DNA of 64,000 nucleotides, taken from contig NC_092007.1 of the NCBI RefSeq assembly GCF_044704955.1, forward strand, positions 11,718,001 to 11,782,000, written 5' to 3'. This document shows positions 5,253 to 54,699 of this stretch, piece after piece (within the stretch, counting starts at the first letter, position 1; each line of letters opens with the position of its first letter). Position numbers and translations under genes: made by a program. The notes under the pieces are model-generated. The model had not been told where the DNA came from. It did no database searches and saw only the letters and a list, made by a program, of their open reading frames with translations. This DNA is from Pristiophorus japonicus (taxonomy: Eukaryota).

Positions 5253-5950
5253 TGTCTTAGTGGGAGTGCAGTGAAGTTTCACTGGACAGATTGCTTGGAT
5301 GAGGATATTTCCTCTGAGGTGAAGTTGAGTAGTCTAGGCCTATACTCTCTAGAGTTTCAAAGAATTTGAAGTGATCTCATTGAAACGAAAACATTTCTTA
5401 TGGGACAGAGATGGTAGATGCTGGGAGGATATGTCTCCTGGCTGGGGAGTCCAGAATTTCAGAATAAGGTGTCAGCCATTTAGGACTGAGGTGAGGAGGC
5501 ATTTCTTCAAATCAAAGGATTGTGAATCTTTTGTATTTTCCAATCCAAATCACTGCCAATGCTCAGTAGTTGACTATTCCCAAGACAGAAACCGATAGAT
5601 GTTTGGATATTATGGGAACGATTCGACTCATCCTGTCAGTGCCAGCCACAATGGAGCCATCCTTCCTATTCCAACTTTCCAGCTCTTGGTCCATAGCGTT
5701 GTTGGTTACTCCACATCAAGTACTAATCCAGTTACTTTTTAAAATGCGATTCGGCTTTTTGCCTCCTACACCCTTTCACGCATTGAGTTCGAGGCCCAGT
5801 CCACACTATGGGTGGAAAAGATTCTCCTCATCTATCCATCTAATCCATCTACCATTTACTTAAAATCTATGTCACATGGTTATTTGATAAATGAAATATG
5901 GCCTTCATATCTTCTCTATCCAGAACCCTCATGATTTATTATGTTCTTGT
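5253..5950. mobile_element. Two old CR1 3' fragments (5253-5620 +, about 5630-5950 -)
   Basis: LGLYSLEFQRI and FRTEVRRHFF on +; a degenerate reverse-complement 3' region follows. Confidence 0.7.
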
Positions 5951-6720
5951 ATACTTACTTGTATTCCCGCAGCATGTACACCACTGGTGCTGAAAAACTT
6001 TGCAGTATTTCTGTCCCAGCAAATGTATAACACTCGTGCGGCAAAATAAGAGTCTTCGCCTGCAGTGCAGTAGAAGGGTCTCCGTCAGTCCAACAAAAGT
6101 GGGGTCTCGAATATGAATAGAATCAGCTTTAGCAGCAGAACGGCATTTCCACGTCTTATATTACTGTAGGCATCCTAGCACTGGAGGACTATGTTCATAT
6201 CTCGTGCAAATGTAGAGTACAACTAGTACCTTAGAAGCAGTAGCAACACCAGTGTAAGTGTAGGGATACACTTGTGCCTGACGATAACCTTCACCACTAG
6301 TATAAGTGTAGGAGTGCTGGTACAACTGGAGGAGGACGGTCAGTTTTAGTGCAAATGTACGCTGCCACTAATATCAGAAGAGCACTTTCACTTCCAGTGT
6401 AACTGTACGTGTGCCACTAGTACCAGAAGAACACGGTCATCTCTGGTGTAAGTGCAGGGCTACCACTCGTACCGAAGGAGTACTTTCACACCTAGTATAA
6501 ATATAATGTGTCACGAGACCCAGAGCAGCATGTTCACCTCTAATATAAGTACAGAATTACCAGTAGTACAGGAAAAGCTTGTTCATCTCTAGCATAGTGT
6601 AGCTGTACCACTACACCCAGAGTAGCGTGTTCAGCTCTAATATAAGTATAGGTTTATCACTATTACAGGAGAATCATTGCCACCTCTATTGTAATTGTAG
6701 GGGTAACACTAATGCTGCTA
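5950..6720. repeat. Diverged 49-bp minisatellite, left part
   Basis: CCACTA-like anchor at 6365, 6414, 6463, about 6512; consensus about CCACTAGTACCAGAGGAGCACGTTCACCTCTAGTGTAAGTGTAGGGNTA. Confidence 0.85.
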
Positions 6721-6724
6721 AAGC

Positions 6725-7790
6725 GAGGAAGTAGTAAGGGGTTTAGCAGCTTTGAAAGTCGCTAAAACCCCAGGCCCGGATGAGCCATATCTATGCTGTT
6801 AAGAGATGCAAAAGAGGAAATAACAGTGGTTTGTTCTTTATTTTCCAATCCTCTCTGGCTACAGGTGTGGGGCTGGTGGACTGGATGATAGCTAATGTCG
6901 AACATTTGTTTAAAGAGGGAGAAAGCAATAGACCGAATAATTACAGGCAGTCAGCCTAACATCGGTGGTGGGAAAATTATTGGAAAAAATCTGATTGACA
7001 GATAAATGTTCATTTATAAGATATGAATTAGTCAAGGACAGTCAGCATGGATTTGTTAAGGGAAGGTCGTGCCTGACTAACTTGGAGGTCACCAGGAAGG
7101 TCAATGCCATTAATACGTTTGATACAGTTAATATGTATTTTAGCAAGGCCTTTGAAAAGGTCACACATGGCACACTGGTCAGGAAAGTAAAAACCCATGG
7201 GATCCTGGTAAAGTGGGAAGTTGGATCCAAAATTGGTTGAGAATCAAAGCGTAATGGTTGTTTGGTATTTGGCCAATTTGTGACTGAAATGCTTTTACCA
7301 GTGGTGATCTGCAGGGCTCAGTATTAGATCCATTGCTCTATGTGGTATATCAACGGTTAAACTTGAATATACGCGGTATGATTAAGACATTTTCAGATGT
7401 TACTAAAAGTCAGCTGTTTCGATGATAATGAAGAAGAACGCTGTAGACTGCAATAAGATATCAATGAACTGGTTAGGTGGGCAGAGCAGAGGCAAATGGA
7501 ATTAATCCGTAGAAGTGTGAGGTAATGCATTTGGGGTGGTTTAAACAGGAAATGGAATACACATTAAATGGTAGGACACTGCAAAGTGTAGAGGAAAAAA
7601 GGGACCATGAAGTACATGTAAACAGAGCCCTGAAATTAGCAGTTCAGGTGGATAAGGTAGATATGAAGGCGTACGGACTAAGAACTGCAAAATTGTGTAG
7701 GCTGGATAGCTCTTTGATGGCTAGCGCAGACATGTTAGACTGAAATGGTCTCCTTTCATGCTGCAAACTTGCATGATTCTATGATTCTAT
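6725..7790 (+). mobile_element. Degenerate CR1 fragment inserted in the 49-bp array
   Basis: SQHGFVKGRSCLTNL, FSKAFEKV; (ATGATTCT)n tail near 7775-7790. Confidence 0.85.
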
Positions 7791-8260
7791 ACCAGCAGAG
7801 CACTGTCAGCTCGAATATAATTATAGTTTACCACTAACATCAGAAGGGCACTTTCAGTGCCAGTGTAATTGTGTTGGTATCGCTGCTATCGGTGGAAAAC
7901 AGTCACATCGAGAGCAACTGTTGGTGTGCCAATGGTGCAGAACAAGCTGGAGCACCGCTGGTGTAAGTGCAGGAAACCACTCGATCAGGACATTCACGTC
8001 CATTACCTGAATGAGTTCAGCGTTATCACTGGTGCCAGAGGAGCAAGATTACCTCGAGTATAAGTGCAGTGTACAACTAGAACTGCAGTGGCACTTTCTC
8101 CTCTGTTGGAAATGTAGTGCTATGAATAGTACCAGAGATGTAAGATCACCACGATTTTAAGTGTGGGTCATCCACAGTTACAACAGAAGCACTCTCACCT
8201 CAAATACAAGGATAGATTTACAACAACTACCAGAGGAATGCGGTTACCTTCAATGCCCTA
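7790..8260. repeat. Diverged 49-bp minisatellite, right part
   Basis: Same unit resumes after the LINE tail (ccactaacatcagaagggcactttcagtgccagtgtaattgt). Confidence 0.75.
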
Positions 8261-8696
8261 CGACTGTGCTCACAACCAATTGTGCACGACATGGCTCACC
8301 AGCTGTTCTGGACGGGTTTGACCAATCCGACTGAGTCAAGGATAGGGGCAGGACATGCAGGGCTAGGGGAGCTGCCATCACTGCTCCTGCAGTAATAGGC
8401 TCAGCAGCTGTACTGTGAGATTGCACATACAAATTGTAATGAAGATTTTATTTGAGCACGCTTTTTAGAAAATTCCCGCTAACACTTTCAATTATTTCAT
8501 TAATCTGATGAATCAGACAAAAACAATTTATCTCAGTCTATTTGTTAAGTGACTGTAAATAATGCTAATTATGAGTTAACCTGATTGACTCTCTGGTGGA
8601 TTGACGTGTGGATAAATATATGTTCCCTTCCATTGCCTCAGACGTGTGCCTATCAGAATATTTCAGTTCCAAACGAATACATCCACTGTCACGAAA

Positions 8697-8766
8697 ATGG
8701 GCCAACTAATGATGCTACAGATAAAAGCGATTTATTTCCCGATTCTCGCAGTCATCGGTGTAACAG
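8697..8766 (+). CDS. GPR139-like GPCR, coding exon 1 (MGQLMMLQIKAIYFPILAVIGVT)
   Basis: ATG 8697 in aaaATGG context, open 70 nt, donor G|GTGAGT at 8767; phase 1 joins exon 2 to complete TM1 (GVT-A-NL). Confidence 0.9.
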
Positions 8767-8853
8767 GTGAGTCATATTAACCTGTTTGTTGTTGATCTGT
8801 ATGAACTGACTCATGTTCTTACCACATGTAGGATACGATAACGTGTTTTCTAG

Positions 8854-9204
8854 ATAGAAACATAGAAAACATAGAAAATAGGTGCAGGAGTAGGCCATTC
8901 GGCCCTTCTAGCCTGCACCGCCATTCAATGAGTTCATGGCTGAACATTCAACTTCAGTACCCCATTCCTGCTTTCTCGCCATACCCCTTGATCCCCCGAG
9001 TAGTAAGGACCTCATCTAACTCCTTTTTGAATATATTTAGTGAATTGGCCTCAACAACGTTCTGTGGTAGAGAATTCCACAGGTTCACCACTCTCTGGGT
9101 GAAGAAGTTCCTCCGCATCTCGGTCCTAAATGGCTTACCCCTTATCCTTAGACTGTGACCTCTGGTTCTGGACTTCCCCAACATTGGGAACATTCTTCCT
9201 GCAT
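8854..9204 (-). mobile_element. Young 5'-truncated CR1 in the GPCR intron
   Basis: Intact ORF2 C-terminus RTRGHSLRIRGKPFRTEMRRNFFTQRVVNLWNSLP and (CATAGAAA)n tail. Confidence 0.95.
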
Positions 9205-9575
9205 TGTAATGGCAGCATTACAGGGTCATTAGAGACTGGAACAATCTCACTGAAGCGGCCGTCCACACTTTCTGCTTTCCCCTTAAGCTGATATCATTAA
9301 TGAAGTTACAATATTCTCTGAAGCTACAGTCCAAGGATTTTGGCTGATTTCTGGATTGTCTTGATGCCCCGTGCACAGTGAGCATTGCAGCAGCTCAGTA
9401 AAGTATGTGGGTTGGTTTTGAAGGTTAGAGGTCCATTACTAATCATATTCCACACAGGTCCATGCTGACAGTAAGACCGAATGGAGTAAAATGCTCTCAC
9501 CAGATATTTCCATCTATATTTCTATATTTCAATCAGACACTCCAACATTATTTCTCTGCTCTCTTTTTCTTACAG

Positions 9576-10486
9576 CGAACTTGGTGACAATTGTTATTTT
9601 ATCCCGAAGGAATTGTGGCCTTTCCAAGTGTATCTCTGTCTACATGATCGCCATGGCATCCGTGGATCTACTGGTCATGATCGTCAATGTAATGCTGTAC
9701 AATATTTTCAGTAATCGCTTTACACTTTCATTCCTGTCCCACACTCCCGTGTGTAAGCTCATTTTATACATGACTGCTGTCAACCTTGATTTGTCTGTTT
9801 GGTTCACCGTTTCCTTCACATTTGACCGATTTGTGGTTATCTGCTGCCAGAAGTTTAAAACAAAGTATTGCACCGAGAGAACTGCGGCCATGGTTATAAC
9901 AGCTTTCACATTCCTCATCTTTTTAAAGAACATCCCTGTTTTGCTTGCATTTGAACCTCATCAAATAATTAACAAGGTACATTGGGGTTGCGTGACAAGT
10001 GTAGCATTTGTTTCCTCACCTCCAGGTGCGGCATACGTCTGGTTTCACAGCGCCTGGGGCGTTTGGTTTCCCTTTACTTTAATTGCCTTGTTAAATTGTT
10101 TGACAGGCAGACGTATTTTAGTGGCCAGTAGATCCCGCAGGGGACTCAGGGGCCACAGGAGTGAGACGCAGAGCGATTCAGAGATGGAGAACCGAAAGAA
10201 ATCCATAATTTTACTCTTTGCTATATCGGGCAGTTTTGTATTGTTGTGGCTGACTGCTGCCGTGAGTTTGGTAACTACCAGGTTGGCAAGCATTAATTAT
10301 TACCGAGGTGACCGCACAGACCCTGGATATATCGCCACTGAAACAGGACTAATGTTAAAGTTTTTGAGTTGCTTTCAAAACCCGTGTATTTATGCAGCGA
10401 CCCAGAGGAAATTCAGAGAAGAGCTGAAGACAGTGGTGAAATCTCCCTGGACATTCATTCTGAGGTTGGTTAGAAAAAGACAGTAA
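9576..10486 (+). CDS. GPR139-like class A GPCR, coding exon 2 (spliced product 326 aa)
   Basis: Pyrimidine tract + tacag acceptor ending 9575; ILSRRNCGLSKC, DLL, FTFDRF, NRKKSIILLF, NPCIY; no stops; AATAAA at 10826. Confidence 0.9.
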
Positions 10487-18139: not shown

Positions 18140-21100
18140 GTCAGCAAATCAGTCAGCACACAAGTGCTGCTTCAAGTACTGTGAACAAAGTGATGTTGTT
18201 TTCGAATCGTAACGTACAGGGTAGGTCATACATACCTGCAGCTACACGTCCGCAAATGTCTCAGAGTCCACCATCAAGAGTGATGAATCAAGGCCATGAA
18301 CACCTTGTTGGCGCTGTGGGGATGATCAGCGTTTCCATTCATGCCGATTCAAAGGATACGTTTACAAGTGCTGTGGAACAATGGGACACTTCCAACCAGT
18401 GTGCAGGCGAGCTGCTAAGTCTGTTAAACCTGCAAACCACCATGTTGCAGAGGAGGACAGATCCACGGATGATCACGATGAACCAGAGCCTCAGAGGCAG
18501 AGTTGCATGGGGTGAACACATTCACCATGAATTGTCCCCCGATAATGCTGAATGTTGAAAGAAATAAACTCCCACTTTAAATGAAGCTGGACATGGGTGC
18601 GAGCCAGTCCATCATGGGCAAAAGACTTTTGAAAGTTGTCGTGCAACAAGACCTCAAGGCCAGTCTTAACTCCAGTTTGCACGAGACTAAGAACTTACAC
18701 GAAAGAACTGATTCCTGTAATCGACAGTGCTACCATAAAAGTCTCTTATGATGGAGCGGTGCACAAGCTCCCACTCTGGGTGGTAGCGGGCATTGGTCCC
18801 ATGCTGCTCGGCAGGAGCTGACTGGGAAAAATACGCTGGAAGTGGAACGACGTCCGACCGCTATCGCCTGCTAGCGACACTTCCTTTGCCCAGGTCTGAA
18901 ACATATTTCCTTCGCTGTTCGAACCATGCATCGGGAATTTCCAAGGAACAAAAGTGCAGATGCACCTTATCCCGGGGGTGCGCCCAATCCGTCACAAGGC
19001 GAAAGCAGTACTGTACATGTTGAGAGAAAGGATAGAGATCGAACTAGACCAGCTGCAACGAGAGGGCATAATTTCACCGATCGAGTTCAGCGAGTGGGCC
19101 AGTCCTATTGTCCCAGTCCTCAAGGGAGATGGCACAGTCAGAATCTGTGGCGATTACAATGTAACTATCAATCGTTTCTCCCTGCGGTACCAACATCCAC
19201 TACCAAAAGCCGATGAACTCTTTGCAACGCTGGTGGGAGGAAAGACGTTCATGAAGCTGGATCTGACCTCAGCCTGCATGACGCAGGAACTGGAGGAATC
19301 ATCGAAGGTCCTCATCTGCATCAACACGCACAAAGGTCTTTTTGTTTATAACAGATACCCGTTTTGAATCCGATCAGTGGCGGCGATATTCAAGAGAAGC
19401 ATGGAAGGTTTACTGAAGTCGGTTCCAGACACCGTGGTCTTCCAGGATGACATCTTGTTCATCGGTCAGAATACAGTCGAGCATCTGCAGAACCTGGAGG
19501 AGGTTCTTATTCGACTCAACCGCGTGGGGCTCAGGTTAAAACGCTCGAAGTGCATTTTCCTGGCGCCTGAAGTGGAGTTCCTGGGAAGGAGGATTGCGGT
19601 GGATGGCCTCAGGCCCACCAACGCGAAGAGGTAGGCAATCGAGAATGCACTGAGGCCACAGAACGTGATGGAGCTGCGGTCGTTTCTGGGACTCTTGAAC
19701 TACTTTGTTAACTTCTTACCGGGTCTCAGCACCCTGCTAGCATCACTACGTGTCTTACCAGGAAAAGGGGGCGAATGGGCTTGGGGCAAAAGCCAAGAAA
19801 ATGCCTTTGTAAAAGCGAGAAAATTGTTATGCTCAAACAAATTGCTTGTGTTGTATGATCCATGTAAGCGTTTGGTATTAGCATGTGATATGTCGTCATA
19901 TGGCGTCCGGTGTGTATTGCAACAAGCTAATGATTTTGGGAAACTGCAACCGGTTACTTATGCATCCAGGTGTCTGTCTAAGGCCAAGAGAACCAAAAGC
20001 ATGATTGAAAAAGAAGTGTTAGCGTGGGTTTATAGGGTAAATAAAATGCATCAATATCTGTTTGGGCTAAAATTCATATTGGAAACTGACCATAAGCCAC
20101 TCATATCCTTGTTTTCCGAGAGTAAAGGGATAAATACCAACGCATCGGCCCGCATCCAAAAATGGGCGCTCACGTTGTCCGCATACAACTAAGCCTTCCG
20201 CTACAGGCCAAGCACAGAAAACTACGCTTATGCTCTCAGTAGGCTGCCATTGCCCACGACGGAAGTGGAAATGGCACAGTCCGCAGTTCTAGCCATGGTT
20301 ATGGAAGCATTTGAGAGTGAGCAATCACCCATCACTGCCCGGCAGATCAAAACCTGGACAAACCAGGACACCTTATTATCTCCAGTCAAAAGCTGTGTGC
20401 TTCACGGGAGCTGGTCCAGGGTCCCAGTGGAAATGCAGGAAGAGTTAAATCCGTTCCAGCAGCGCAAAGATGAAATGTCTGTACAGGCAGACTGCCTTCT
20501 GTGGGGCAATCGAGTAGTGGTCCCCAAGAAGGGCAGAGACACTTTCCTCAATAGCCTTCACAATACCCACCCAGGCATTGTAATGATGAATGCGAAAGCC
20601 AGATCCCACGTGTGGAGTCCCAGCATCGATGCGGACTTGGAGTCCTGCGTTCACAGGTGTAATACATGCTCGCAGTTGAGCAATGTACCCATGAGGCACC
20701 GCTAAGTTAATGGTCTAGGCCCTCCAAACCGTGGCTTCGGGTCCAAGTCAACTATGCAGGCCTATTCTTGGGTAAAATGTTCCTTGTGGTTGTAGATGCG
20801 TACTCCAAGTGGAATAAATGTGAGATAATTGTATTAAATTATGGACAAGGTCCCAAGTGGCTTCCTGGCACTGTCGTGGCCAAAGAGGAGAGCAGGGTGT
20901 TTCGGGTCAAACTTACAAATGGATTAATTCACCGGAAACACTTGGACCAAATCAAAATCAGATTCATGGACTACCCTGAGCAAGCCACATTGGACCCTAC
21001 CTTTTTGGATCCCCCAACACACACACGAGTGGCAACCGACACTATGGTTGACCACAACGCAGAACCAATCATTCACAGCAGCCCTGCAGGGCCCAACATA

Positions 21101-21473
21101 CCAGGCAGCTCAGCAAGGCCAGCTGCACAGCAGCCCAGCGAGGGAACAACAAATGACTCAACAACACCAGCTTTCACACCGAGACGATCAACCAGGACAA
21201 GAAGGGTCCCAGATCGACTCAGATTGTAAATAGTTACACTATTGACTTTGGGGAGGAATGTTATTATATAGGTGGACTTGTATTTACTCTGTACAGCCAC
21301 CAGAGGGCTCATTCCCTGGAGTCCCAAGAGATCCCATAATCCCTTGGGAGCACAGGTATTTAAGAAGGCTTCACAGGTTGGAGAGGCACTCTGGAGACTT
21401 GCAATAAAATACTACGGTCAGACTTTACTTTGAGCTCACCGTGTTCAATCTGACACTTTCTCCATACACAATA
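18140..21473 (+). mobile_element. 5'-truncated Ty3/Gypsy retrotransposon with 3' LTR (21259-21473)
   Basis: RT WASPIVPV, CGDY, FQDD; RNase H ACD, TDHKPL; integrase H..HPG..C..C with core deleted; PPT ggggaggaa; LTR TGTT...CAATA. Confidence 0.95.
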
Positions 21474-22139: not shown

Positions 22140-22780
22140 AGTGTTCACCTTTATTGCAAAGGGGATAGAGTATAAAGGCAGACAAGTCCCGCGACAACTC
22201 TGCAGGATATTGGTGAGGCCACACCTGGAGTACAGCGTCCAGATTTGACATTTTTATTTAAGGAGGGATATACTTGCATTGGAGGCAGTTCAGTGAAGGT
22301 TCATGAGGTTAATTCCTGAAATGATGGGGTTGTATTATGAAGAAGCTTTCAGCAGGTTGGGTATATATTGGAGCTTAGAAAAATGAGAGGTGATTTTATT
22401 GAAATGTATAAGATTCCGAGGAGACTTGACAGTGTACATGCAGAGAGGATTATTCCCCTTGTGGGGGAATCGAGAAGTAGGGGGCATATTTTCTGAATAA
22501 AGGGGCGCCCATTTAAAACGGAGATGGGTAAGAATTTCTTCTCTGAGAGACTTGTGAATCTGTAGAATTCTCTTCCTCAGAGAGCTTTGGAGGGTGGGTC
22601 AGTGAATATATTTATGGTGGAGATAGACAGATTCTTGAATGATAGGGGAGTCACAGAGTATGGGGAGCAGGCAGGTTCGAGGAGTTGAGGCCAAGATCAG
22701 ATCAGCTATGATCTTATTGATGGCGGAGCCGGCTCGAGTGGTCAAATGGTGGACACCTGATCCGAAGATGTTCTCATGTG
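22140..22780 (+). mobile_element. Degenerate CR1 3' fragment
   Basis: VRPHLEY and RG..FKTEM..NFF remnants plus 3' UTR. Confidence 0.85.
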
Positions 22781-22823
22781 TGTTGTAATTCTGTGCCTGT
22801 GTGTGTGTTAGTTTGCATCTCTG

Positions 22824-23268
22824 TGTAAGACTTACGTTAATTAAGACAGGTTTTAGCCTGTAAAGTTTATGTCTTTTCCCTGCACTTTACAGAGCTGGAA
22901 ATTAACCCCCTGATTCTCTTGGTAACTGACCAGGTTACCAATCGCTGGATTGTAGTGCTGCCTTCATGTGTCACAGGCATTTTATCTGTTTTTTTCAGAA
23001 TGACTGCCCACCGTGTACATAATTCTCCAGATTTAATTCACAGCGAAAGTTTTTCACAATGAATGTAAGTTTCATTCTCGTATCTCCTTGTTGCAGCTCG
23101 ATTACTGTTCCCAGGCAATGTCCTTTTGCAGCTGCGAGCTTTTAAAACCCTGGAGAAAGCCTTTTGAATTCGCAATGCCTTCTGCGTCTTTGGTTTTTGC
23201 CATCTTTGAGCAGTTTGCAAGCACAATTATTAGCAGAAAATGAGACAAAAGAATGCTGTGGTCTTACA
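22824..23268 (-). mobile_element. ERV-B 3' LTR (internally deleted)
   Basis: Perfect 8-bp inverted termini TGTAAGAC...GTCTTACA; alignable by eye with 39360-40083 and 53987-54699. Confidence 0.85.
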
Positions 23269-23317
23269 GATCCAACCAGAGGTAAATGGACTCGAACTTT
23301 TCGAGTCCCAGTAACTT

Positions 23318-24400
23318 TTAGTTCAGTTCAGTATCCTCTCCTTTCGTCTGTGTTTCCTGAATCAGCGTGATACACTCCTGCTGCTGGCATCTCCTGTTAA
23401 CACGGCAGGATATTATCAGACAATGCAACACATTCCCTGGCTGTGCAGCGACCAACACACGTGAGACAATCCGTAATTCACGGAAGATTTTCACTGTTCA
23501 ATACAATGTCCAGCCAGGATGCATCATCAGCAAACTTAAACATTTCTTTCCAAACTTCACGGTTTTTCTAGGCCATAATAGTGGCTTTGGAACTGTTTAA
23601 CACATTTCATTAACTTTGCCAAGTGTTCCGGTGGAGCTGGGATGCCAAAGTCAAATCGCACCATGTACTGGTGAAATTGCTTCTTTAATGCATCTTCCAC
23701 AGCAATATCTAATTGCCTCTGCTGATAAATGCAGAACGAAACCCTTGCCCCAAGTCTTACAGTTTGGGCTGGGGTAAAGCACATGTTCCCATCCCGCTGG
23801 GACAATTCAGGTCGGCACTATACTGGTATTGCCATTGTATGGTGGTGACACAATACTCGCCCTTCCCTCTATATGCAGATCGTACGGGGAAAATGCTGTC
23901 CCGCAATTACCTTCACGGTATAGGTCCATACTATCACATCCCACTTAGACCCGCACGCTTGGGCTGCATGTTCTGCCACATCGAAGGGACAAGTGAACAT
24001 GTCCCCGAACTTCAGCACATCTAGATAGGCCTGGGGCTACCCATGTTGTCACATCCAACCGCGTCACATACTGCGGGGCTTCATAATATCTGACGAAATG
24101 GTCTCCCTGATGTATTCCTACGTTCTGTACTCAGAACAAAAGATTTGTGGTTATTTTCTCAGGCATAATTGTGTAATAACATAAAGTTGCGCTGTTCTGG
24201 TAGACGGCATTCGTGCCTCACCGGGTATACCAGTACCAACCGCATGACTTGGCACAGAGTCTGAGCTAGTTGGTAAATGCGCAGCGCCCTCAGATGTCGA
24301 TCAATTGCCCACGATGGGGGCTTTCCCTCAGCAATATTCCGCAGGTTCTTGAAGGCTCGTTCCACTAACCAAGATGCGCATCTTACATGTATATTCAACG
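23318..24400 (-). pseudogene. ERV-B env remnant, F-glycoprotein-like, several frameshifts
   Basis: Stitched frames: NIAEGKPPSWAI..VQNVGIHQGDHFVRYYEAPQYV..WVAPGLSRC..FTCP..ACG..AYRGKGEYCVTT..NCP..NMCFTP, then a helical stretch, hydrophobic segment, short tail and stop about 50 nt before the LTR. Confidence 0.7.
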
Positions 24401-24404
24401 TCAG

Positions 24405-25140
24405 CAGGCTGCAGTTAATGGGGTGATGCAGGGATCAGTGCTGGGGCCTCAGCTATTTACAATCTATATTGATGATCTAGATGATGGGACCGAGTGTAAT
24501 GTATCCAAGTTTGTTGAATATACAAAACGTGGTGGGACAGTAAGCTGTGAAGAGAAGGCAAAACGTCGGGAACTAGATGTAGATAGACTGAGTGAGTGGG
24601 CAGTAAGGTGGCAGATGGAGTATAATGTGGCGAAATCTGAGGTTATTAACTTTGGTAGAAAAAATAGAAAAAGAGAATATTTTTTAAATGGTGAGAAACA
24701 TTTAAATGTTGGTGATCAGACAGATTTGAGTGTTCTTGTGTAAGATACACAGACAGCTAGCATGTGGGTACAGCAAGCAAGTCGGAAGGCAATAGGCATA
24801 TTGTCCTTTATTGCAAGTGGGTTGGGGTATAAGAGTAGGGAAGTCTTGGTAGAATTGTACAGGACCTTGGTGAGACCACACCTGATGTACTGTGCAAAGT
24901 TTTGGTCTCCTTATCTAAGGAAGGATATACTTGACTTGGAGGCGGTACAACGTATGTTCTCTCGACCGATTCCTGGGGTGAGAGTGCTGTCTTATGTTAA
25001 GAGATTGTGTAGAACGCTCTAGAGTATTCTGTATGCTCTAGAGTTTAGAAAACTGAGAGATGATCTCATTGAAACATACGGAATGCTTACAGGACATGAC
25101 AGGGTGGTTGCAGGGAGGATATTTCCCCGAGCTGGAGAGG
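24405..25140 (+). mobile_element. CR1 RT fragment inside ERV-B
   Basis: QGSVLGPQLFTIYIDDLD, VRPHLMYCAKFWSP. Confidence 0.9.
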
Positions 25141-25941
25141 TTTTTTTAACAGACACCATACCAACTAACTTCAAGGCTGAAGCTTATCTTTTGCAGAACA
25201 AATGGTCTTCTGTGCATTTCATAACAACAATAACTTGTATCTATTTGCGAGAATTATATTCAAAATAGCTCTGCACCTGCATTTATAACCTATGATCTAA
25301 TTCAATTGTGGGTGCACGCTTTCATTACCATTATTGAACAAAGGCAGTCGTACAAGCTAGACGATATTGAACCCTGTAATGGATTATGAACTGGAGGTGC
25401 CAAATCAGTTCATAACCAAAAACATGACTCAAGTACCTCTCTAAAATAATACACATACATAATTCAAGTAAAAAACTTTTCAACATAAGCAATTATCTAA
25501 CATCCACGATAAGATTACAAAGGGTTAAATGGATTTCAGCTCTAAATCCATAAAGGTGGGTGGAGCTAAGACAAACATACAGACAGTCTCTTTTCCAAAG
25601 ACTGGCTTTCGAGCAAACAACAAATTCATCATCTCCCTAAATATTCACGTTCGGTAACTCTCGCGACAAATGCACATTTTCCTTGCAAACTGGAATTTCA
25701 ACATTCTTTCAAGCTTCTTTCAGTCAATGATATCCGATGTTTCTTTATTCTTTTCTTGGCGCAAACACTGACAACGTCAAGTGTCAGTTTCAACTTCACC
25801 GATCCTTTAAAACATTATGAATTCGCAAAGACTTTTGGGGCACTAATAATTTGGTCAACACATGTTTTCAGCCATCTTGGAGCAATTTGCAAGCACAGTT
25901 ATGAACTGAAAATGAGCCCTCATAAATGCTGTAGTCTTGCC
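25140..25941 (-). mobile_element. ERV-B 5' remnant: partial LTR (25818-25941) fused to internal sequence
   Basis: 25818-25941 matches LTR 54578-54699; 25585-25815 matches 51310-51550. Confidence 0.7.
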
Positions 25942-26100: not shown

Positions 26101-27154
26101 CTACAACTGAGTTTGCATTGTTTCCCCCTGATTGTCAACCCGTTGAAACGACTTCTTGAGTAAGTCCCTGAAGTCCTGCCACTTGAAGAGGTAGAGAAAG
26201 GGGTTGATGCAGCTGTTGATGCAGGCCAGGCCGCGGCTGAATGGGACGCCCACCATCAGCGCCATGAGCCAGTCTTCGTCATGTGGGTGGAGCAGCAGGG
26301 CGAGGATAGAGCAGATGTTGTAGGGCGCCCAGCACAGGAGGAAGGGCAGGATGATGGTGGCCATGAACCTGAAGGGCTTGCTGCCGCTGGACACCAAGTG
26401 GTCCCGCCTCGGCCGCAGCCCGATGATGGTGCAGCTGGCGGTGATCACCAGGAATGGGAGGAGGAACCCGATGAGGAAGCTGGTGAGAGTCAGTGCTCGG
26501 TACCGGGCATCATGCATGCTCTTCGCCTGCTCCGGCACCGCCCGGTCATCATCCTCTCCATGGCCCGTCGTGTTCAGTGCCACCCCCTTGCCCTCCAGCG
26601 CATACTCGGTAAAGCACCACATGTGGTCACCCCGGGACACCAATTGTCGGAAGACGAACGATGGCGCACTCCCGAATGCAGCTGCCAGCCACATCTCCAG
26701 GCTGAGCAGGGTGGCCAGCCGCGGGCTGCGGTGGTTCTGGGACCAGACGGGCAGCACCACCGAAAAGCAGCGGTCCACGCTGATGGCGGCCAGCATAAAG
26801 ACGTTGGCGTGCAGACAGAGCACCACCGCCCCATAGCTGAGCTTGCAGATCAGCCAGCCGAAGGGCCAGTGGAAGTCAAGGGCGATGTCGGTGATGTAAA
26901 GAGGGAGCAGCAGAGAGACGGTGAAGTCAGCCACGGCAAGGCTCTACAAACAGATAGTGTAGGCCGTTCTCTTCAGCTTGAAGCCAGTGGCCCAGATGAC
27001 CAGCCCGTTGCCCACATGCCCAGGACGCAGGTGTGATGTAGATCACAACAGTGCAGGCGCGCATCGCTCGCTCCGTGCTGCAGTAGACTTCTGTTGCCAG
27101 GACATCGTGTGGAACCTCGCTGGAGTTGGTCGGCTGAAAATCATCGGGCTCCAT
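26101..27154 (-). pseudogene. Chemoattractant receptor-like GPCR pseudogene (C3aR/CMKLR1/FPR group)
   Basis: WPFG..CK, DRC, CWAPY, NSCINPFLY; versus the 57568 paralog it has two 1-nt deletions in TM1 and an in-frame TAG near 26944. Confidence 0.9.
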
Positions 27155-32400: not shown

Positions 32401-35400
32401 ATGGCCTACTCCTGCACCTATTTTCTATGTTTCTATGTTTCTACCCGTAGCCATGGAACTGGACACTGGCGCTAGCCAATCCATCATGCGTAAAAAGATG
32501 TTTGAGAGACTGTGCTGAAACAAGCCATTCACACCAGCCCTGAGACCCATCCACACGAAATTGAGAACGTACACCAAAGAGCTTATCACTGTCCTGGGCA
32601 GCGCCATGGTCAAGGTCACCCACAAGGGCACGATGCATGAACTTCCACTCTGGATTATCCCTGGAAATGGCCCTACACTGCTTGGAAGGAGCTGGCTGGG
32701 CAAAATCCGCTGGAACTGGGATGACATCTGAGCGCTAGCACATGTCGATGAGGCCTCATGTACCCAGGTTCTTAACCAATTTTCTTCCATTTTTGAGCCA
32801 GGCATTGGAAACTTTTCTGGGGCGAAGGTGTGGATCCACTTGGTCCCAGAGGCATGCCCCATTCACCACAAGGCGCGAGCGGTACCTCACATGATGAGGA
32901 AGAGAGTGGAAATTTAGCTGGACAGGCTGCAACGCGAGGGCTTCATCTCCCCAGTGGAATTCAGTGAGTGGGCCAGCCCGATTGTTCCAGTGCTCAAAAG
33001 TGATGGCATGGTCAGGATTTGTGGCGATTATATAGTAACTATTAATCGTTTCTTGCTACAGGACCAATAACCGCTATCTAACGCAGACATCCCATTTGCG
33101 ACACTGGCAAGAGGCAAGACGTTCACCAAGCTCGACCTGACTTCAGCCTACATGACGCAGGATCTGGAGGAGTCTTCGAAGAGCCTCACCTGCATCAACA
33201 CGCACAAGGGACTGTTCATCTACAACAGATGCCCGTTTGGAATTCGGTTGGCTGCAGCAATATTCCAGAGAAACATGGAGAGCCTACTCAAGTCATACCA
33301 CGCATGATGGTTTTTCAGGTCGACATATTGGTCACGGGTCGGGACAGCGCCGATCACCTACAAAACCTGGAGGAGGTCCTCCGGCGACTGGATCGTGCAG
33401 GGCTGCGGCTGAAGAGGTCGAAATGCGTCTTCATGGCAACAGAAGTGGAGTTTTTGGGGAGAAAGATTGCGGCGGACGGCATTCGGCCCACAGGCGCCAA
33501 GGCAGAGGCTATCAGGAATGCGCCCAAGCCACAGGAAATCACGGAGCTGCGTTTGTTCCTGGAACTCCTCAACTATTTTGCTAACTTCCTACCGGGGAAA
33601 AGCATCCTCTTCGTTTCCTCACATGTGTTATTGCGCAAATTTGAGAACTGGATATGGTGAAAAAAACAAGTAATTGCTTTTGAGAAAGCCAGAAACATTT
33701 TATGCTCCTACAAGCTGCTTGTATTGTATAACCCGTGTAAAAGACTTGTGGTAGCATGTGACACGTCATCGTACGGAATCTGGTGGGTATTTCAACAAGC
33801 TAACATTGTGGGGAAGTTGCCACCTGACGCCTATGCTTCTGGGAGCTTTTCTAAGGCTGAGAGGGCCGACAGCATGATTGAGAAATAGGCTTTAGCATGT
33901 GTGTTCTGTGTAAAGTAAATGCATCAGTACCTGTTTGACCTCCAATTTGAGCTGGAAACCGATCACAAGCCCCTCACGTCCCTGTTCGCTGAAAACAAGG
34001 GGATAAATACTAATGCCTCAGCCCGCATACAAAGGTGGGCACTCGCGCTATCAGCGTATAACTATACCATCCGCCACAGGCCAAGCACCGAGAACTGTGC
34101 GGATGCTCTCAGTCGGCTACCATTGCCCACCATGGGGGTGGAAATGACGCAGCCTGCAAACTGATGAATCACCTGTCGCGGCCCGCCAGATTAGGACTTG
34201 GACCAGCCAAGATCTTCTGCTGTCCCTATTAAAAAACTGTTTGCTGCATGGGAGCTCGGTCAGCATCCCCGCTGAAATGCAAGAGCCAATCAAGCTGTTC
34301 TAGCGGCGAAAGAATGAGCTGTCCATTCAGGGAGACTGCCTGTTATGGGGTAACCGCGTCGTGCTACCAAAAACGGGCAGGGAGACCTTCATCTCGGATC
34401 TCCACAGCACACACCCGGGTATAGTAATGATGAAAGCGATAGCCAGATCCCACCTGTGGTGGCCCGGTATCGACTCTGACTTAGAGTCCTGTGTACAGCA
34501 ATGCAGCATATGTGCTAAGTTGAACAATGCGCCCTGAGAGGCACCACTAAGTTTGGCCCTCCTGACCATGATCGAGGATTCATGTCGACTATGCGGGCCC
34601 GTTACTCGGTAAAATGTTCCTGGTGGGTGGTGGATGCTTTTTCAAAATGGATTGAATGTGAAATAATGTCGGGAAGCACCACCGCCGCCACCATTGAAAG
34701 CCCGCGGGCTATGTTTGCCACCCACGGCCTGCCTGACATACTGGTCAATGACAACGGGCCACGTTTCACCAGTGCCGAATTTAAAGCATTCATCACCTGC
34801 AATGTGATCAAACATGTCACCACGGCCCCGTTTAAACCAGCCTTCAATGGGCAGGCAGAACGGGCAGTACAAGCCATCAAACAGAGCCTTAAACAAGTCA
34901 CAGAAGACACACTCCAAACACGCCTGTCTCGAGTACTGCTCAGCTACCGCACAAGACCCCACTCGCTCACAGGGGTGCCCCTGGACGAGCTACTCATGGA
35001 AAGGACACTTAAAACCAGACTCTCGCTGGTTCACCCCAACCTGCATGATCAGATAGAGAGCAGGCGGCAGCAACAACATGTAAACGATGGTCGCGTTACT
35101 GTGTCACGGGAAATTGATCTGAATGACCCTGTGCATGTGCTAAACTATGGACATGGTTCCAAGTGGACCCCAGGCACGGTGATAGCTAAAGAAGGGAATA
35201 GGGTATTTGTAGTCAAACTCGACAATGGACAAATTTGCAGAAAGCACTTGGACCAAACGAGGCTGCGGTTCACAGAATGCCCTGAACAGCACACAGCAGG
35301 CACCAGCTTTTTCGAGCCCATAACAGACACCCAAAGGATCAACGACACCACCCCGGACCAGGGAATCGAACCTATCACGCCCAACAGCCCAGCCCGCCAG

Positions 35401-37189: not shown

Positions 37190-39310
37190 AGTGTTCGCCT
37201 TTATTGTAAAGGAGATAGAGTACAAAAGCCTAGAAGTCCTGCTACAACTGTACAGGGTATTGGTGAGGCCACACCTGGAATAATGCGTACAGATTTAGTA
37301 TTCTTATTTAAGGAAGGATATACTTGCACTGGAGGCAGTTCAGTGAAGATTCATGACGTTGATTCCTCAAATAAAGTGATTGTCTTACGAAGAAAATTTG
37401 AGGAGGTTTGGCATGTATTGGTGTTTTGAAGAATAAAAGTTGATCATATTGAAACGTATAAGATTGTGAGGGGGCTTGACAGGGTAGATGCAGAGAGGAT
37501 GTTTCCCCTTGTGGGTGAATCTAGAACAAGGGGGCATAGTTTCAGAATAAGGGGTCGCCCATTTAAAACGGAGATGAAGAAGAATTTCATTTCTCAGAGG
37601 TTTGTGAATCTATATAATTTTCCATCTGGATCAGTTCCGATGGACCGGAGTATAGCTATGTAACCCCACTTTTTAAGAAAGGAGGGAGAGAGAAATCGAG
37701 TAATTATAGACAGATTAGCCAGACATCAGTAGTGGGGAAAATGTTGGAATCAAATCTTAAAGATGAAATAGCAGCGCTTTTGGAAAGCAGTGATGGGATC
37801 AGATAAAGTCAGCATGGATTTATGAAAGGGAAATCATGCTTGGCAAATCTTCTGGAATTTTTTGAGGAGGTAACTACTAGAGTGGACAAGGGAGAACCAG
37901 TGGATGTGGTGTATTTGGACTTTCAAAAGGCTTTTGATAAGGTTCCACACAATAGATTGCTGTGCAAAATTAAAGCGCATGGTATTAGTGGTAATGTACT
38001 GACGTGGACAGAGAACTGGTTGGCAGACAGGAAGCAGAGAGTCGGGATAAACGGGTGCTTTTCAGAATGGCAGGCAGTGACTAGCGGGGTGCCACAGGGC
38101 TCATTGCTGGGAACCAAGCTATTTACAATATACATTAATGATTTAGATGAAGGAATTGAGTGTAATATCTCCAAGTTTGGAGGTGGCACTAAGCTGGGTG
38201 GCGGTGTGAGCTGTGAGGAGGACGGTAAACGGCTGCAGGTTGACTTGGACAGGTTATATAAGTGGGCAAACGCATGGCAGGTGCAGTATAATGTGGAGGA
38301 ATGTGAGGTTATCCATTTTGGTGGCAAAAACACGAAGGCAGACTATTATCTGAATAGAGACCGATTAGTAAAAGGGGAGGTGCAACGAGACCTGGGTGTC
38401 ATGGTACATCAGTCATTGATGGTTGGCAGGTGGTGAAGAAGGCAAATGGCATGTTGGCCTTCATAGCTACGGGATTTGAGTATACGAGCAGGGAGGTCTT
38501 ACTGCAGTTGTACAGGGCCTTGGTGAGGCCATACCTTGAATATTGTATACAGTTTTGATCTCCTAATCTGAGGAAGGATGTTCGTGCTTTTGAGCGAATG
38601 CAGCGAAGGTTCACTAGACTGATTCCAGGGATGGCAGGACTGACATATGAAGAGAGATTGGATCGACTGGGCCTGTATTCACTGGAGATTAGAAGGATGA
38701 GAGGGAATCTCATAGAAACATATAAAATTCTGACGGGACTGGACAGGTTAGATGCAGGAAGACTGTTTCCGATGTTGGGGACGTCCAGAGCAGGAGACAT
38801 GGTCTAAGGATAAGAGGTAAGCCATTTCGGACTGAGATGAGGAGAAACCTCTTCACTCAGAGAGTTGTAAACCTGTGGAATTCTCTGCCGCAGAGAGTTG
38901 TTTATGCCAAGTCACTGGATATATTCAAGAGGGAGTTAGATGTGGCCCTTATGGCTAAAGGGATCATGGGGTATGGAGAGAAAGCAGGAAAGGGGTACTG
39001 AGGTGAACGACCAGCCATGATATTATTGAATGGTGATGCAGGCTCGAAGGGCCGAATGGCCTAATCCTGCACCTATTTTCTATGTTTCGATCTATGTTAA
39101 TATATTACCCCAGAGGGCTGTCGAGGCTGGGTCAGTGAATATATTTATGGTGGAGATAAACAGATTCTTGAATGATAGGGGAGTCAAGGGTTATGGGGAG
39201 TGAGCAGGGAAGTGGAGATGAGGCCAAAATCAGATCAGCCATGATCTTATTGAATGGCGGAGCAGGCTCGAGGGGCCAAATGGCCGACACCTGTTCCTAT
39301 TAGGTTCTTA
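37190..39310 (+). mobile_element. Old CR1 3' fragment with a younger CR1 (about 37625-39095) nested in it
   Basis: Host matches 22140-22780 on both sides; insert carries RT ORF 37822-38436 and its own tail. Confidence 0.88.
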
Positions 39311-39359
39311 TATGTGCTGTGTTTCGGTGCCTCTGTCTGTGTTAGTATGTGTGTTTCTG

Positions 39360-40083
39360 TGTAAGACTTACATTAATTAAGACAGGTTTTAGCCTGTAAA
39401 GTTTAGGTCTTTACTCTACACTTTACAGAGTTTGACTTATGAGACAAAAACAACACAGACTCTGGGTGTATGGCACCCACCCCGATACTGGGGTTATCTT
39501 TACTTAGAATAATCAAGAGATACAAGCAATCATGCATACATAGCACCAAATACACCATAATTTCTTATTATTAAGCCGCAGTGACCAATCCCATTAAATT
39601 ATTTCTTAACAGCTAAACATTGCCGTTTACCTAAGTGACTGCTAAGCAAAGGCATTCATGTCTGAGAGCTAACTCCAGCCGTGGTTAGCGATTGAAAGTT
39701 AACCCCCTGATCCTCTTGGTAACTGACCATGTCACCAATCGCTTGATTGCAGTCTTGCCCTCACATTTTGCAGCCATTATGTACTGTTTTTTTTCTGGAT
39801 ATCTGCCCACCGTGCACATAATTGTCCAGGTTAAAATATAGGGCAAGTCTTTTGCGATGAATATGTTTTTCATTCTCTTATTTCCTTGTTGCAACTCTTT
39901 CACCATTTCCGGACAATGTCTTTTTGCAGCTGGGGCATGTTAAAATTCTGGAGAAAGTCTTTTGAATTCACAAAGACTTTTGGGTCACTTCAACTGGTCA
40001 ACCTAGGTTTTCTGCCATCTTGGAGCAGTTTGCAAGCACAGTTATTAGCAGAAAATGGGACAAGACAAAGCCATCATTTTACA
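39360..40083 (-). mobile_element. ERV-B 3' LTR, second copy
   Basis: TGTAAGAC...TTTTACA; colinear with 53987-54699. Confidence 0.85.
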
Positions 40084-40132: not shown

Positions 40133-40520
40133 TTAGTTCACGTCATAATCATCTCCTTTCATCAGTGATGCCTGTATCAGCCTGAGCCACTCATGTTGCT
40201 GGCATCTCCTGTTAACACGGCAGATTATTATGAGACAATACAAGACAATCCCTGGCTGTCCAGCGACCAACACGTGCGAGAAAATCCGTATCCAAAGAGG
40301 AATTTCGATGTTCGTTACACCGTCCCACCAGGACGAAGCATCAGCAATCATAGACATTACTTTACGGAGTGGATTTGGGACTGTTTAACACGTTTCATTA
40401 ACGCTGTCAATTGTACTGCTGGAGCTGGGATGTCAGAGCTGAATCGAGCCATGTACTGGTGCAATTGCTGCTTTAAATCATCTTGTACAGCGATATCTAC
40501 TTGTCTGTGCGGATAAATGC
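40133..40520 (-). pseudogene. ERV-B env 3' end (membrane-proximal region, TM, tail)
   Basis: DASSWWDGVTNIEIPLWIRIFSHVLVAGQPGIVLYCLIIICRVNRRC..*; homologous to 23318-23735. Confidence 0.7.
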
Positions 40521-42624: not shown

Positions 42625-42905
42625 ATTAAGAACATAAGCGCACAAGAAAAAAGAGCAGTAATAGGCCATGCTGCTCCTCGAGCCTGCTCCAACATTTAAT
42701 ACGATCATGGCTGATCCGGTCATGGACTCAGATCCACTTCTCTGCCCGCTCCCCATAATCTCTTAATTCCTTATCGGTCAATAAACTGTCTATCTCTGCC
42801 TTAAATCTAATCAATGTCCCAGCTTCCACAATTCTCTGGGGAAGCGAATTCCACAGATTTATTACCCTCTTAGAGTAGAAATTCCTCTTCATCTCAGTTG
42901 TAAAT
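42625..42905 (-). mobile_element. CR1 3' fragment
   Basis: FTTEMKRNFYSKRVINLWNSLPQ and aagaacataag tail. Confidence 0.85.
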
Positions 42906-42909
42906 GGGG

Positions 42910-44000
42910 GGCACTGAGCACTGATCTGGTCTCCATATACCTGGGTTAGACCACACATGGAGCGTTCTGCACAGTCTGGTCTTTCTATATCTTGGTGAGA
43001 CAACACTGGCAGCACTGTGCACGGTTCTGGTCTCCATATACGTGGGTTAGACCACACTTGCAGCACTGTGCACAGTTCTGGTCTCCATGTACCTGGATTA
43101 GACCAGACTAGGAGCACTGTGCACAGTTCTGGTCTCCATATACCTGGGTTAGCCCTCACTTGGAGCACTGTGCACAGTACTGGTCTCCATATACCTGGAT
43201 TAGACCACACTTGGAGCACCGTGCACAGTTCTGGTCTCCAAATACCTGGGTTAGACCACATGTGGAGCACTGTGCACAGTTCTGGTCTCCATATACCTGG
43301 GTTAGACCACACTTGGAGCACCGTGCACAGTTCTGGTCTCCATATACTTGGGTTAGACCACACCTGGAGCACTGCGCACAGTTCTGGTCTCCACATACCT
43401 GGGTTAGACCACACTTAGAGAACCGTGCACAGTTCTGGTCTCCATATACCTTGGTTAATTTACATTTGGAGCACTGTGCACAGTTCTGGTCTCCACATAC
43501 CTGGGTTAGACCAGACTTGGAGCACCGTGCACAGTTCTGGTCTCCATATACCTGGGTTAGACCGCACTTGGAGCACTGTGCACAGTTCTGGTCTCCATAT
43601 ACCTGGGTGAGACCACACTTGGAGCATCGTGCACAGTTCTGGTCTCCATATACTTGGGTTAGACCACACCTGGAGCACCGTGCACAGTTCTGGTCTCCAT
43701 ATACCTGGATTAGACCACACTTGCAGCACTGTGCACAGTTCTGGTCTCCACATACCTGGGTTAGACCACACTTAGAGCACCGTGCACAGTTCTGGTCTCC
43801 ATATACCTTGGTTAATTTACATTTGGAGCACTGTGCACAGTTCTGGTCTCCGTATACCTGAGTTAAACCACACTTGGAGCACTGTGCACAGTTCTGGTCT
43901 CCATATACCTTGGTTAGACCGAACTTGGAGCACTGTGCACAGTTGTGGTCTCCATATACCTGGGTTAGACCACACTTGGAGCACCGTGCACATTTACGAT
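42910..44000 (+). repeat. 51-bp minisatellite derived from CR1 ORF2, about 21 units
   Basis: GTTAGACCACACTTGGAGCACTGTGCACAGTTCTGGTCTCCATATACCTGG = VRPHLEHCAQFWSPYTW; continues into a CR1 3' end at 44000-44500. Confidence 0.95.
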
Positions 44001-44559
44001 ATCCATATTACAAAAAGGAGAAAGTGCAAAAGAGGATTTACGAGGATGATACCTGAACTGAGAGGTTATAACTTTCAGGAAATGCAGCACAGGCTGGTGT
44101 TCGGTAAAAAGTGAAGGCTGTGGGCTGAGCTGATAGACATCTTATGAAAGAGATTATGAAAGGGTTAGATAGGGTAGGCGTAGAGAAGATGTTTCCACTT
44201 GTGGGGGAGACCAGAACTAGAGCCATCAATATACGACAGTCACTAATAAATCCAATGGGGAATTCAGGAGAAACTTCTTTACCCAGAGAGGGGTGAGAAT
44301 GTAGAACTCGCTCCCACAGGGTAGGGTCGATTCGAATAGCAGAGATACATTTAAGGGGAAGCTGGATAAACACATGAGGGAGAAAGGAATAGAAGGATAT
44401 GGTGATGGGGGAAATGGAGAGGGGAGGGAGGGGGCTGGTGTGGAGCATAAACCCCGGCACGGAGCGGTGGGGCCCAATGGCCTGCTTCTGTGCTGTAAAT
44501 AATTTGTAGATCGACCTTTATCCCGAACTGGCCGAATGATCAGCAATGACATAAACCTC

Positions 44560-49965: not shown

Positions 49966-50029
49966 TTGGAGCATTGTACACAGTTCTGGTCTCTATATTG
50001 TAAAAATGGTCTGAAATGCTGCAGTGTCG

Positions 50030-50700
50030 CTTCAGTACTGCCCCTCCGACAGCGCAATACGGCGCTCCCTCAGTACTGCCCCTCCGACAGTGCGGCGCGC
50101 CCTCAGTACTGTCCCTCCGACAATGCGGCACTCTCTCAGTACTGCCCCTCCCACAGTACGGTGTTCCCTCAGTACTGCCCCTCCTAGAGTACGGCACTCC
50201 CTCAGTACTGTCCCTCCGACAGTGCGGCACTCGCTCAGTACTGCCCCTCCAACAGTGTGGCACTCCCTCAGTACTGCCCCTACGACAGTGCGGCACTCCC
50301 TCAGTACTGTCCCTCCAACAGTGCGGCACTCCCTCAGTACTGCCTCTCCGACAGTGCGGCGCTCCCTCAATACTGCCCCTCCAGCAGTGCGGAACTCCCT
50401 CTGTACTGCCCCTCCGACAGTGCCGCGCTCCCTCAGTACTTCCGTTCCAACCATGCGCCACTCCCTTAGTACTGACGCTCGGACAGTGCAGCGCTCCCTC
50501 AGTACTGCCCCTCCGATGTTATGAGGCTCCGTCAGTACTGCCCCTCCGACAGTTCGCCACTCCTGCAGTAGTGACCCTCGGACAGTGCGAAGCTCCCTCA
50601 GTAATTCCATTCCGACAGTGGAGCGTTCCCTCAGTACTGCCCCTCCGACAGTGCAGTACTCTCTCAGCACTGCCCCTGCAACAGTGCAGCGCTCCCTCAG
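50030..50700. repeat. 33-bp minisatellite, about 20 units
   Basis: Anchor CAGTACT at 50071 and 50104 (period 33). Confidence 0.97.
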
Positions 50701-50715
50701 AGTTTGGGATGTCCT

Positions 50716-51300: not shown

Positions 51301-51702
51301 CACTAATAAACGACTCTTTTTTTAACGACAGGCTTTCGAGCAAAGGAAAAATTCTTCAACTCCCCAACCATTCACTGCCAGTAAGTTTCACTACAAACGC
51401 ACATTATCCACACTCACAGGAATTCCAGAATTCTTTCAAGCGTCTTTCACTCAGTGAAATCCTGTGGTGTTTTTTTATACATTTCTTGACGCAATACTGA
51501 CAGCTCTCAGTGTTGGTTTCAACTTCTCCTTTACTCTCGGTCCCTTTAAAACCTGCTTCGAAATAACCCTATTGTTCCCACTAATTAATTTCTCCTCCGA
51601 GCTCTGTCTGTTCTGAACTGTATCTCTGTGCTGTTTCCTTTAACGCCTAAATTCCCCACGGACCGTGCGTTCTTACACCCTCTTTCCATTTCCTTCTGAA
51701 AC

Positions 51703-53986: not shown

Positions 53987-54699
53987 TGTCAGACTTATCT
54001 TCACACAACAGGTTTTAGTCTGTAAGGTTTATGTTTGTTTTCTCTACACTTTGCAGGGTTCGGACTTGTAAGTCAAAAACAAAACAGACACAGGGTGTTT
54101 CTTTTCACACACCTATCCAGGGGTTATTTTTACTTAGAATAATCTAAATAAATACAAGCAATCACGATAGTATTAAATGCACAATCATTTTTAATTTTTA
54201 ACCCGCTCTCACCAATCACATTGAACTATTAACAGTTAAACATTGCCTATTTCCTAATTGATTACAAAGCAAAGACTCTCACATGAGTTAACTCCAGCCT
54301 TAGTCAGTGATTGGAAATTAACCACCATGATTGACTTCGTAACTGACCAGGTCACCACTCACATTGACCGCAGCGCTGACCTCATGTATTACAGCCATCC
54401 TTTAATAGTTTTCTAGAGGTATTCCCACCGTGTATGTAATTGTCTAGGTCTAAAACAAAGGGATAGTCTTTCACCATGAATAGGTCTTTCATTCTCTTCT
54501 CTTCACAGTTCCCAGACATTGCCTGTGAGAACTGTCTCTTTGCAGCTGTGAGATGTTAAAACAGATGAGAAAGACTTTTGAATTTGCAAAGCCTTTTGGG
54601 TCACAAAAAATCAGTCAACGCATGTTTTCAGCCACCTTGGAGCAGTTTGCAAGCAAAGTTATTAGCATAAAATGAGCCCAAAAATGCTGTAGTCTTACA
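53987..54699 (-). mobile_element. ERV-B 5' LTR (713 bp)
   Basis: TGTAAGAC...GTCTGACA on -, followed by a PBS. Confidence 0.85.

Follow-up and report, generated by a model that had tools for sequence, protein, structure and literature searches.

A decayed endogenous retrovirus in the sawshark genome belongs to a large basal family with a likely F-type envelope

The 64,000-nt stretch of Pristiophorus japonicus (sawshark) DNA analysed here, called the window throughout, most probably holds a provirus, decayed and deleted, that belongs to a very large endogenous retrovirus (ERV) family, whose reverse transcriptase (RT) lies inside Retroviridae and outside the lokiretroviruses (Loki), and whose envelope (Env) is likely of the paramyxovirus F type. 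The layout and motifs of the element, the RT clade, and how the window copy decayed and was duplicated can be read directly. A first-pass annotation, made from the letters of the window, had seen an ERV in a cartilaginous fish, which stands, and had tentatively assigned it to a lokiretrovirus lineage, which does not: relatives that carry the same env have the order LTR-primer-binding site-gag-pro-pol-env-LTR and an RT inside Retroviridae, and the AU test rejects a clade with Loki.

The window copy is read on the - strand (Table 1). Its Cys-rich env peptides follow one another across frameshifts in the order first described, distributed over three alternating frames (24390-23318). The env stop (23320-23318), placed earlier about 50 nt ahead of an LTR with perfect ends, is separated by 49 nt from the LTR start at 23268; the LTR has 8-nt inverted ends and reads, from 23268 to 22824, TGTAAGAC...GTCTTACA. 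Sister LTRs are ~700 nt long and align to 22824-23268 as two blocks with ~250 extra nt in between. At the other end of the element, the upstream flank of the 5' LTR stump (25815-25941) matches that of the complete 5' LTR at 54699 (80% over 277 nt), which belongs to a second copy described below. The apparently non-coding segment at 25141-25796 is also present in loci L086, L089, L085, L078, L093 and L028, lying between gag and the RNase H/integrase remnants of family members in which neither protease nor RT is seen, and is absent from the RT-bearing loci L081, L082, L083 and L088. The inserted LINE fragment (24404-25126), which we take to be CR1-type, is ~67% identical to many dispersed repeats of the window. 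The surviving env (23318-24390) is without the furin site, the fusion peptide and the first heptad repeat. A WWD/TM segment, also claimed earlier, exists in the copy at 40.4 kb, while the main copy reads WLD.

Table 1. Features of the two copies of the element in the window
Feature	Position	Strand	Description
5' LTR stump	25815..25941	-	~127 nt left; 79% identity to 3' LTR start over 76 nt
Internal segment, apparently non-coding	25141..25796	-	72% over 584 nt to L090
LINE fragment inserted in element	24404..25126	+	RT-like ORF pieces on + strand
env 3' half	23318..24390	-	Cys-rich ectodomain, helical stretch, TM and tail, spread over three alternating frames interrupted by stops
3' LTR	22824..23268	-	445 nt; 8-nt inverted ends; internal deletion of ~250 nt
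5' LTR, second copy	54008..54699	-	followed by decayed primer-binding-site-like sequence
Internal segment piece, second copy	51318..51529	-	75% over 213 nt to 25591-25800
env 3' end, second copy	40133..40520	-	76% nt identity to 23734-23318; profile positions 444-567
3' LTR, second copy	39360..40083	-	downstream flank same as that of first copy

An env profile combines 65 natural fragments of env taken from other loci and excludes the 3 window rows. Run against the six frames of the window, it aligns with 24386-23363 through five segments (i-E 1e-28 to 5e-5), which span profile positions 223-567 of 568, and with 40518-40178 through two (positions 444-567); there is no further match in those frames. 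Since a profile lacking the window rows still matches 24386-23363, the window env is not a chance resemblance. The absence of surviving pol, noted earlier, is borne out by tblastn with the family RT, which finds in the window no pol of the ERV family and only two unrelated RTs at 26-28% identity. The window copy is a dead, deleted provirus that has no gag, no pol and no 5' half of env, and from which no intact protein is made. Decayed gypsy-like pol fragments, unrelated to the ERV family, are present elsewhere in the window at 18933-21229 (+), from 29701 onward and at 33298-34074, and minisatellites with periods of 51 nt and 33 nt lie at 42873-44090 and 49955-50782, respectively.

Fuller copies in the sawshark genome contain, in order, an LTR, a primer site, gag with a CCHC knuckle (CX2CX4HX4C in 11 of 16 loci), protease (PR), RT, tether, RNase H (RH), integrase (IN), env and a second LTR. 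Loci L061-L064 and L068 are collinear proviruses of the order gag-PR-RT-tether-RNase H-IN-env, two of which have LTR pairs at 91% and 94% identity; L081, L082, L083 and L088 are collinear gag-PR-RT-RH-IN-env, and in the first three of these PR, RT and IN lie upstream of env. The primer site follows the LTR in L083, where it is presumably of the Lys type (tRNA), and decayed forms are found in L090, L091 and L100. Nucleotide identity of the window env is 74% with L024, 73% with L082 (over 715 nt) and 71% with L083, and blastn finds no match to it in L061 or L062; the window copy belongs to an older subfamily. L028 shares the window LTR and groups by integrase with L082 and L083 (100/99). The natural frame of L024 supplies the N-terminal half of env that is missing from the window, a basic site followed by heptads. 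L024 also contains, upstream of its F-like env copy, a separate ERV (5370-10000, -) with pol and a gamma-type-looking env, whose integrase falls beside the gamma/epsilon group.

Some family members have no RT. In L089, L090, L085, L093 and L028 a shared AT-rich segment, which is the internal segment of the window copy, replaces protease and RT, while gag, integrase remnants and env are kept. The sequences suggest a derivative of this kind that was copied in trans, and the window copy would likely descend from such an RT-less derivative, mobilised in the same way.

The ERV family is very abundant. Protein searches of the genome returned 10,339, 15,324 and 11,111 first-look candidates, figures that are not copy numbers, and many of the family matches among the 150 scored in each search have long open frames. 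A Pol of Loki type from eel, used as query, finds only matches at 35-36% identity (52 candidates scored after a stricter first look); 25 of the 52 fall within a frame of 1,423 codons, and 22 of the 25 have no stop in either match. For 3 of the 52, env matches follow ~4 kb downstream. Given these long frames without stops, and pol at this distance ahead of env, young copies seem to be present in the family. For env, dN/dS is 0.26-0.65 in all 21 unsaturated pairs (23 tried), as computed on hand-chosen stop-free frames and with the caveat that CpG decay can inflate dS. Values below 1 are consistent with a working envelope during the spread of the family, and so spread by reinfection is likely.

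The window copy, which has no pol, is placed through relatives at 70-74% nucleotide identity that carry the same env. The RT alignment leaves out matches shorter than 180 residues, 16 near-duplicates within clusters and 70 of the 78 rows that a motif flagged as gypsy-like; the RT tree contains 46 of 102 rows, picked by hand, and the tree of RT plus tether 49 rows. Loki is represented by six proteins assigned by the published-consensus motif and by host (the named hosts being eel and medaka) and the foamy viruses by one row, feline foamy virus; the rows include neither SnRV nor CmiERV sequences. All three RT trees have the order gypsy, then Loki, then the remaining retroviruses, and the branch that parts Loki and gypsy from all retroviruses has support of 100/100 and 100/99, with an SH-aLRT of 98 under a mixture model. 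The shark RTs form a single clade (100/100) inside Retroviridae, outside gamma/epsilon and outside one group of the RT tree to which we give, as our own assumption, the label ERV-L-like. The closest named RTs, at 42-51% identity, belong to unclassified Pol proteins from Xenopus tropicalis, from Aquarana/Lithobates ("NYNRIN-like") and from Latimeria; these frog and coelacanth proteins, although nearest, do not resolve as one clade with the shark RTs in careful trees. The lineage is most probably a basal, class III-like shark ERV inside Retroviridae and outside the lokiretroviruses. An RT tree of full proviruses had been proposed earlier as a check on the Loki assignment; they do not group with Loki, and they do not group with gypsy or gamma/epsilon elements either. 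A placement in Ty3/gypsy (Metaviridae) is ruled out by the RT trees. Class I (gamma/epsilon) is likewise excluded: the clade of walleye epidermal hyperplasia virus 1 (100/97, 100/99) leaves out the shark RTs, and ISD and CX6CC occur in 0 of 123 Env rows.

Within Retroviridae the lineage falls in a polytomy among basal retroviruses, and the AU test keeps a union of the shark RTs with feline foamy virus (p=0.16). It is thus conceivable, if unlikely, that the element is a true foamy virus or a foamy-like ERV (FLERV) of the CFEFV or CmiFLERV type, with an Env sharing the F core. The shark elements resemble foamy viruses and fish foamy-like ERVs in their basal position in Retroviridae, in an Env that likely has an F core, and in a primer site that we take to be of the Lys type. 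Foamy Env ranks first in the structure search with the second Env model (E=0.014). The Env of foamy viruses has the F fold (PMC11468914), and in another report shark and frog FLERVs cluster together, with only pol found for the shark FLERVs (PMC5512871). Against a foamy assignment, the shark Gag has the CCHC knuckle, which foamy and fish foamy-like Gag are reported not to have (PMC5210030). Foamy virus genomes also differ in having accessory genes after env, for which there is no room here, the env stop lying ~50 nt from the LTR both in the window and in L090. No foamy Pfam domains are present in the proviruses, the integrase is of a different kind and distant from that of feline foamy virus, and the shark Env, unlike that of foamy viruses, has a short signal peptide and one furin site seen.

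A closer Pol resemblance is to CmiERV lineage I of the elephant shark. By eye, on the published scaffold-2 sequence, the two share the RT motifs THKHDCG, PACAP, LDISNGFWSIPL and LPQGFHNSP, a CCHC Gag, a similar integrase and a cartilaginous host. However, the env of CmiERV lineage I in that sequence reads as gamma-type, with ISD and CX6CC, whereas the shark ERV env described here is without both and F-like. In Han 2015, CmiERV scaffold 2 is placed with snakehead retrovirus (clade Huo, class III; PMC4422223), and cartilaginous-fish ERV RTs belong mostly to clade III according to a later report (10.1101/2023.10.17.562709).

A chondrichthyan lokiretrovirus, the original assignment, is now very improbable. 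Several features do point in this direction. Shark and Loki elements have the same gag-pol-env layout, with a tether and second RNase H; the latter, present in the shark proviruses, are common to all retroviruses. The shark Env resembles Loki Env in being F-like and in having a signal peptide, an RxxR-cleaved site, a coiled coil and a TM. Raw scores also come near Loki-type proteins: RT identity is higher to Loki (32-38%) than to feline foamy virus (29-32%), and the integrase, similar in type by score, reaches 174 and 164 bits with Loki vs 94 with foamy virus, the bootstrap of the integrase tree being unsettled. However, the shark RT has LPQGFHNSP and not the PFGYxNSPAEF of the published Loki consensus, its clade is different, and the AU test (LG+G4) rejects a union of shark and Loki, with p=0.0018, 0.029 when two sister rows are included and 4e-6 with the tether. 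The best match of eel Loki-type Pol in the genome is 36% (52 candidates scored, stricter first look), and a search there for the exact Loki motif pattern gives 0 matches, though decayed copies could escape it. In addition, the spacer between protease and RT is much shorter in the shark elements, and the shark Env, at ~700 aa, has an extra N-terminal domain, Loki Env being shorter in the one consensus compared (PMC7947760). The profile check with PF00523 that had been suggested earlier gives no match to the shark Env, whereas Loki Env does match PF00523. The earlier statement that lokiretroviruses are not reported from Chondrichthyes agrees with 0 of 3 genomes.

In fuller copies, Env is a precursor of ~700 residues that begins with a signal peptide and an N-terminal domain, followed by a furin site (RxxR in 29 of the 33 rows that cover it), a hydrophobic start and long heptad helices; after the heptads come a Cys-rich beta region, a second helix, a TM and a tail. 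As first noted, neither motif of gamma-type envelopes is visible, CX6CC and ISD being found in none of the 123 Env rows. The only named env homologues are those of Pristiophorus japonicus, Rhinoraja longicauda and Scyliorhinus torazame, and because these are a sawshark, a skate and a catshark, the host can be taken to be a cartilaginous fish, as the first-pass annotation had it. Two predicted sawshark proteins (P0002 and P0004) join env pieces to Niban-1-like and cadherin-related genes, probably as annotation artefacts.

The F-type fold of Env is likely, as judged from models and learned features. By ESM features, Baculo_F/gypsy Env clusters are on top (0.94-0.95), and PF00523 clusters follow at 0.93 and 0.92; the PF00523-type cluster is 47% PF00523, and F-type clusters share 190-213 of 256 features with the shark Env. 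For the model of one sawshark member in the ESM Atlas (pTM 0.42), the five nearest structures are all F-family, with TM by query of 0.39-0.57, rows that all fall under the bar for family naming; the next five have TM by query of 0.29 or less. The best superposition covers 268 residues at TM 0.57 to F0. AlphaFold models of Env are poor (pLDDT 45 and 55, pTM 0.26-0.27) and have long helices past the furin site, a beta region and a last helix. With these two models, pneumovirus F or foamy Env fills 10 of 10 and 8 of 10 of the top Foldseek positions in PDB, at weak best values of E 1e-3 and 1.4e-2 and TM ~0.1, foamy Env being the top match for the second model. In BFVD a torovirus spike is the best match, and a fish paramyxovirus F is also at the top. 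The top-ranked ESM group, F-type errantivirus Env and baculovirus F, differs in its setting: errantivirus F-type Env sits on invertebrate Ty3/gypsy elements (10.1101/2023.10.26.564294), and the shark RT is not gypsy.

The ERV could be as described and its Env still not homologous to F, the signals arising from generic coiled coils. The HMM scans are blank (in hmmscan neither the 68 alignment members nor the long frames match PF00523, and Pfam gives no match to PF12259 or foamy Env either), a sequence search of PDB with Env has no match, the models are poor, and VIA-align matches only a long helix, in unrelated helical proteins and with no superposition on F. This explanation is nevertheless most improbable: the 190-213 of 256 ESM features held in common with F-type clusters and the Atlas superposition argue against it, and two separately built models each rank F-class proteins first. 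The earlier description of the Env as F-glycoprotein-like is thus likely to hold on ESM features, Atlas TM and Foldseek ranks, while its PF00523 side comes up blank. In the N-terminal domain of Env there are weak Ig_3 matches under the cut-off, in L061 at 6583-7300 (+; E 0.087) and in L066 at 1849-3276 (-; E 0.013). The last 200 residues of a Xenopus tropicalis protein (P0007) contain an apparent signal peptide together with an Ig-like stretch, which may be where the env of that element starts; this C-terminal stretch has no significant blastp match to the head of the shark Env.

By analogy with F proteins, the shark Env would be cut by furin and then trimerise; the new N terminus would enter the target membrane, and Env would fold back so that the membranes fuse.

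F-type envelopes have been described in foamy viruses and in Loki, which is sister to the retroviruses; here one would occur in a separate basal lineage of Retroviridae. The literature searched, mostly non-subscription full texts, describes no F-type env on a shark ERV that is neither Loki nor foamy. We give about even odds to the broader reading that the shark family is a third retroviral lineage with an F-type Env besides Loki and foamy viruses, basal and class III-like, dominant in the shark genome and with young open-pol copies, that envelopes were swapped, and that the F type is likely ancestral. A swap within one basal lineage is proposed because gamma-type env is what the nearest relative by Pol among described elements has. 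On the origin of Env in retroviruses, Wang and Han 2020 leave four scenarios open (PMC7947760); a separate basal lineage with an F-type Env would favour an ancestral F type and later replacement by the gamma type, and the question becomes testable with Env and Pol trees. If this is true, F-like envelopes were commoner among early retroviruses than reported, and the clade III ERVs, which are reported to be dominant in cartilaginous-fish genomes, would gain an envelope. The window locus itself is no more than a dead passenger.

The insertion in the window has been duplicated. A stretch at 40520-40133, earlier taken as the missing piece of the window env, is instead the 3' end of env in a paralogue of this insertion, a second copy that occupies 54699-39360 (-) and is homologous to the first in both flanks (downstream, 22575-22894 vs 39108-39430 at 85%). 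The 5' LTR of the second copy is 74% identical over 687 nt to its LTR at 40057-39382, and the insertion is therefore old; no target-site duplication is readable at the insertion in the window. A DNA search of the 5.9-Gb genome with the window element yielded 523 candidates, and the 40 that were scored contain 42 matches, among which 20 copies are 92-100% identical, 15 on the window contig and 5 on a second contig. A 7tm_1 GPCR gene adjoins the window copy, another adjoins the second copy, and GPCR-like frames are visible in 4 array loci (10-kb stretches). The array copies are passengers of segmental duplication, multiplied ~20-fold in a tandem GPCR array. The window copy has lost the greater part of its 5' half and received the LINE, and segmental duplication then multiplied it passively along with the neighbouring GPCR gene. 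That the tandem copies are instead a host-co-opted env fragment retained with the GPCR array, which the 92-100% identity of the 20 copies on the two contigs (again from 40 of 523 candidates scored) might suggest, is hardly credible: in all 21 array copies examined env is split over three frames and truncated (profile start at least 220, no 5' half), broken frames that refute a protein role, and the LINE piece and the flanks are duplicated together with the env fragment. The 7tm_1 GPCR genes of the window are intronless and lie at 26101-27143 (-), where the gene is frameshifted near its start, and at ~57584-58400, in a tandem array of ~20 units; they resemble what we take to be chemoattractant receptors of the CMKLR1/FPR kind.
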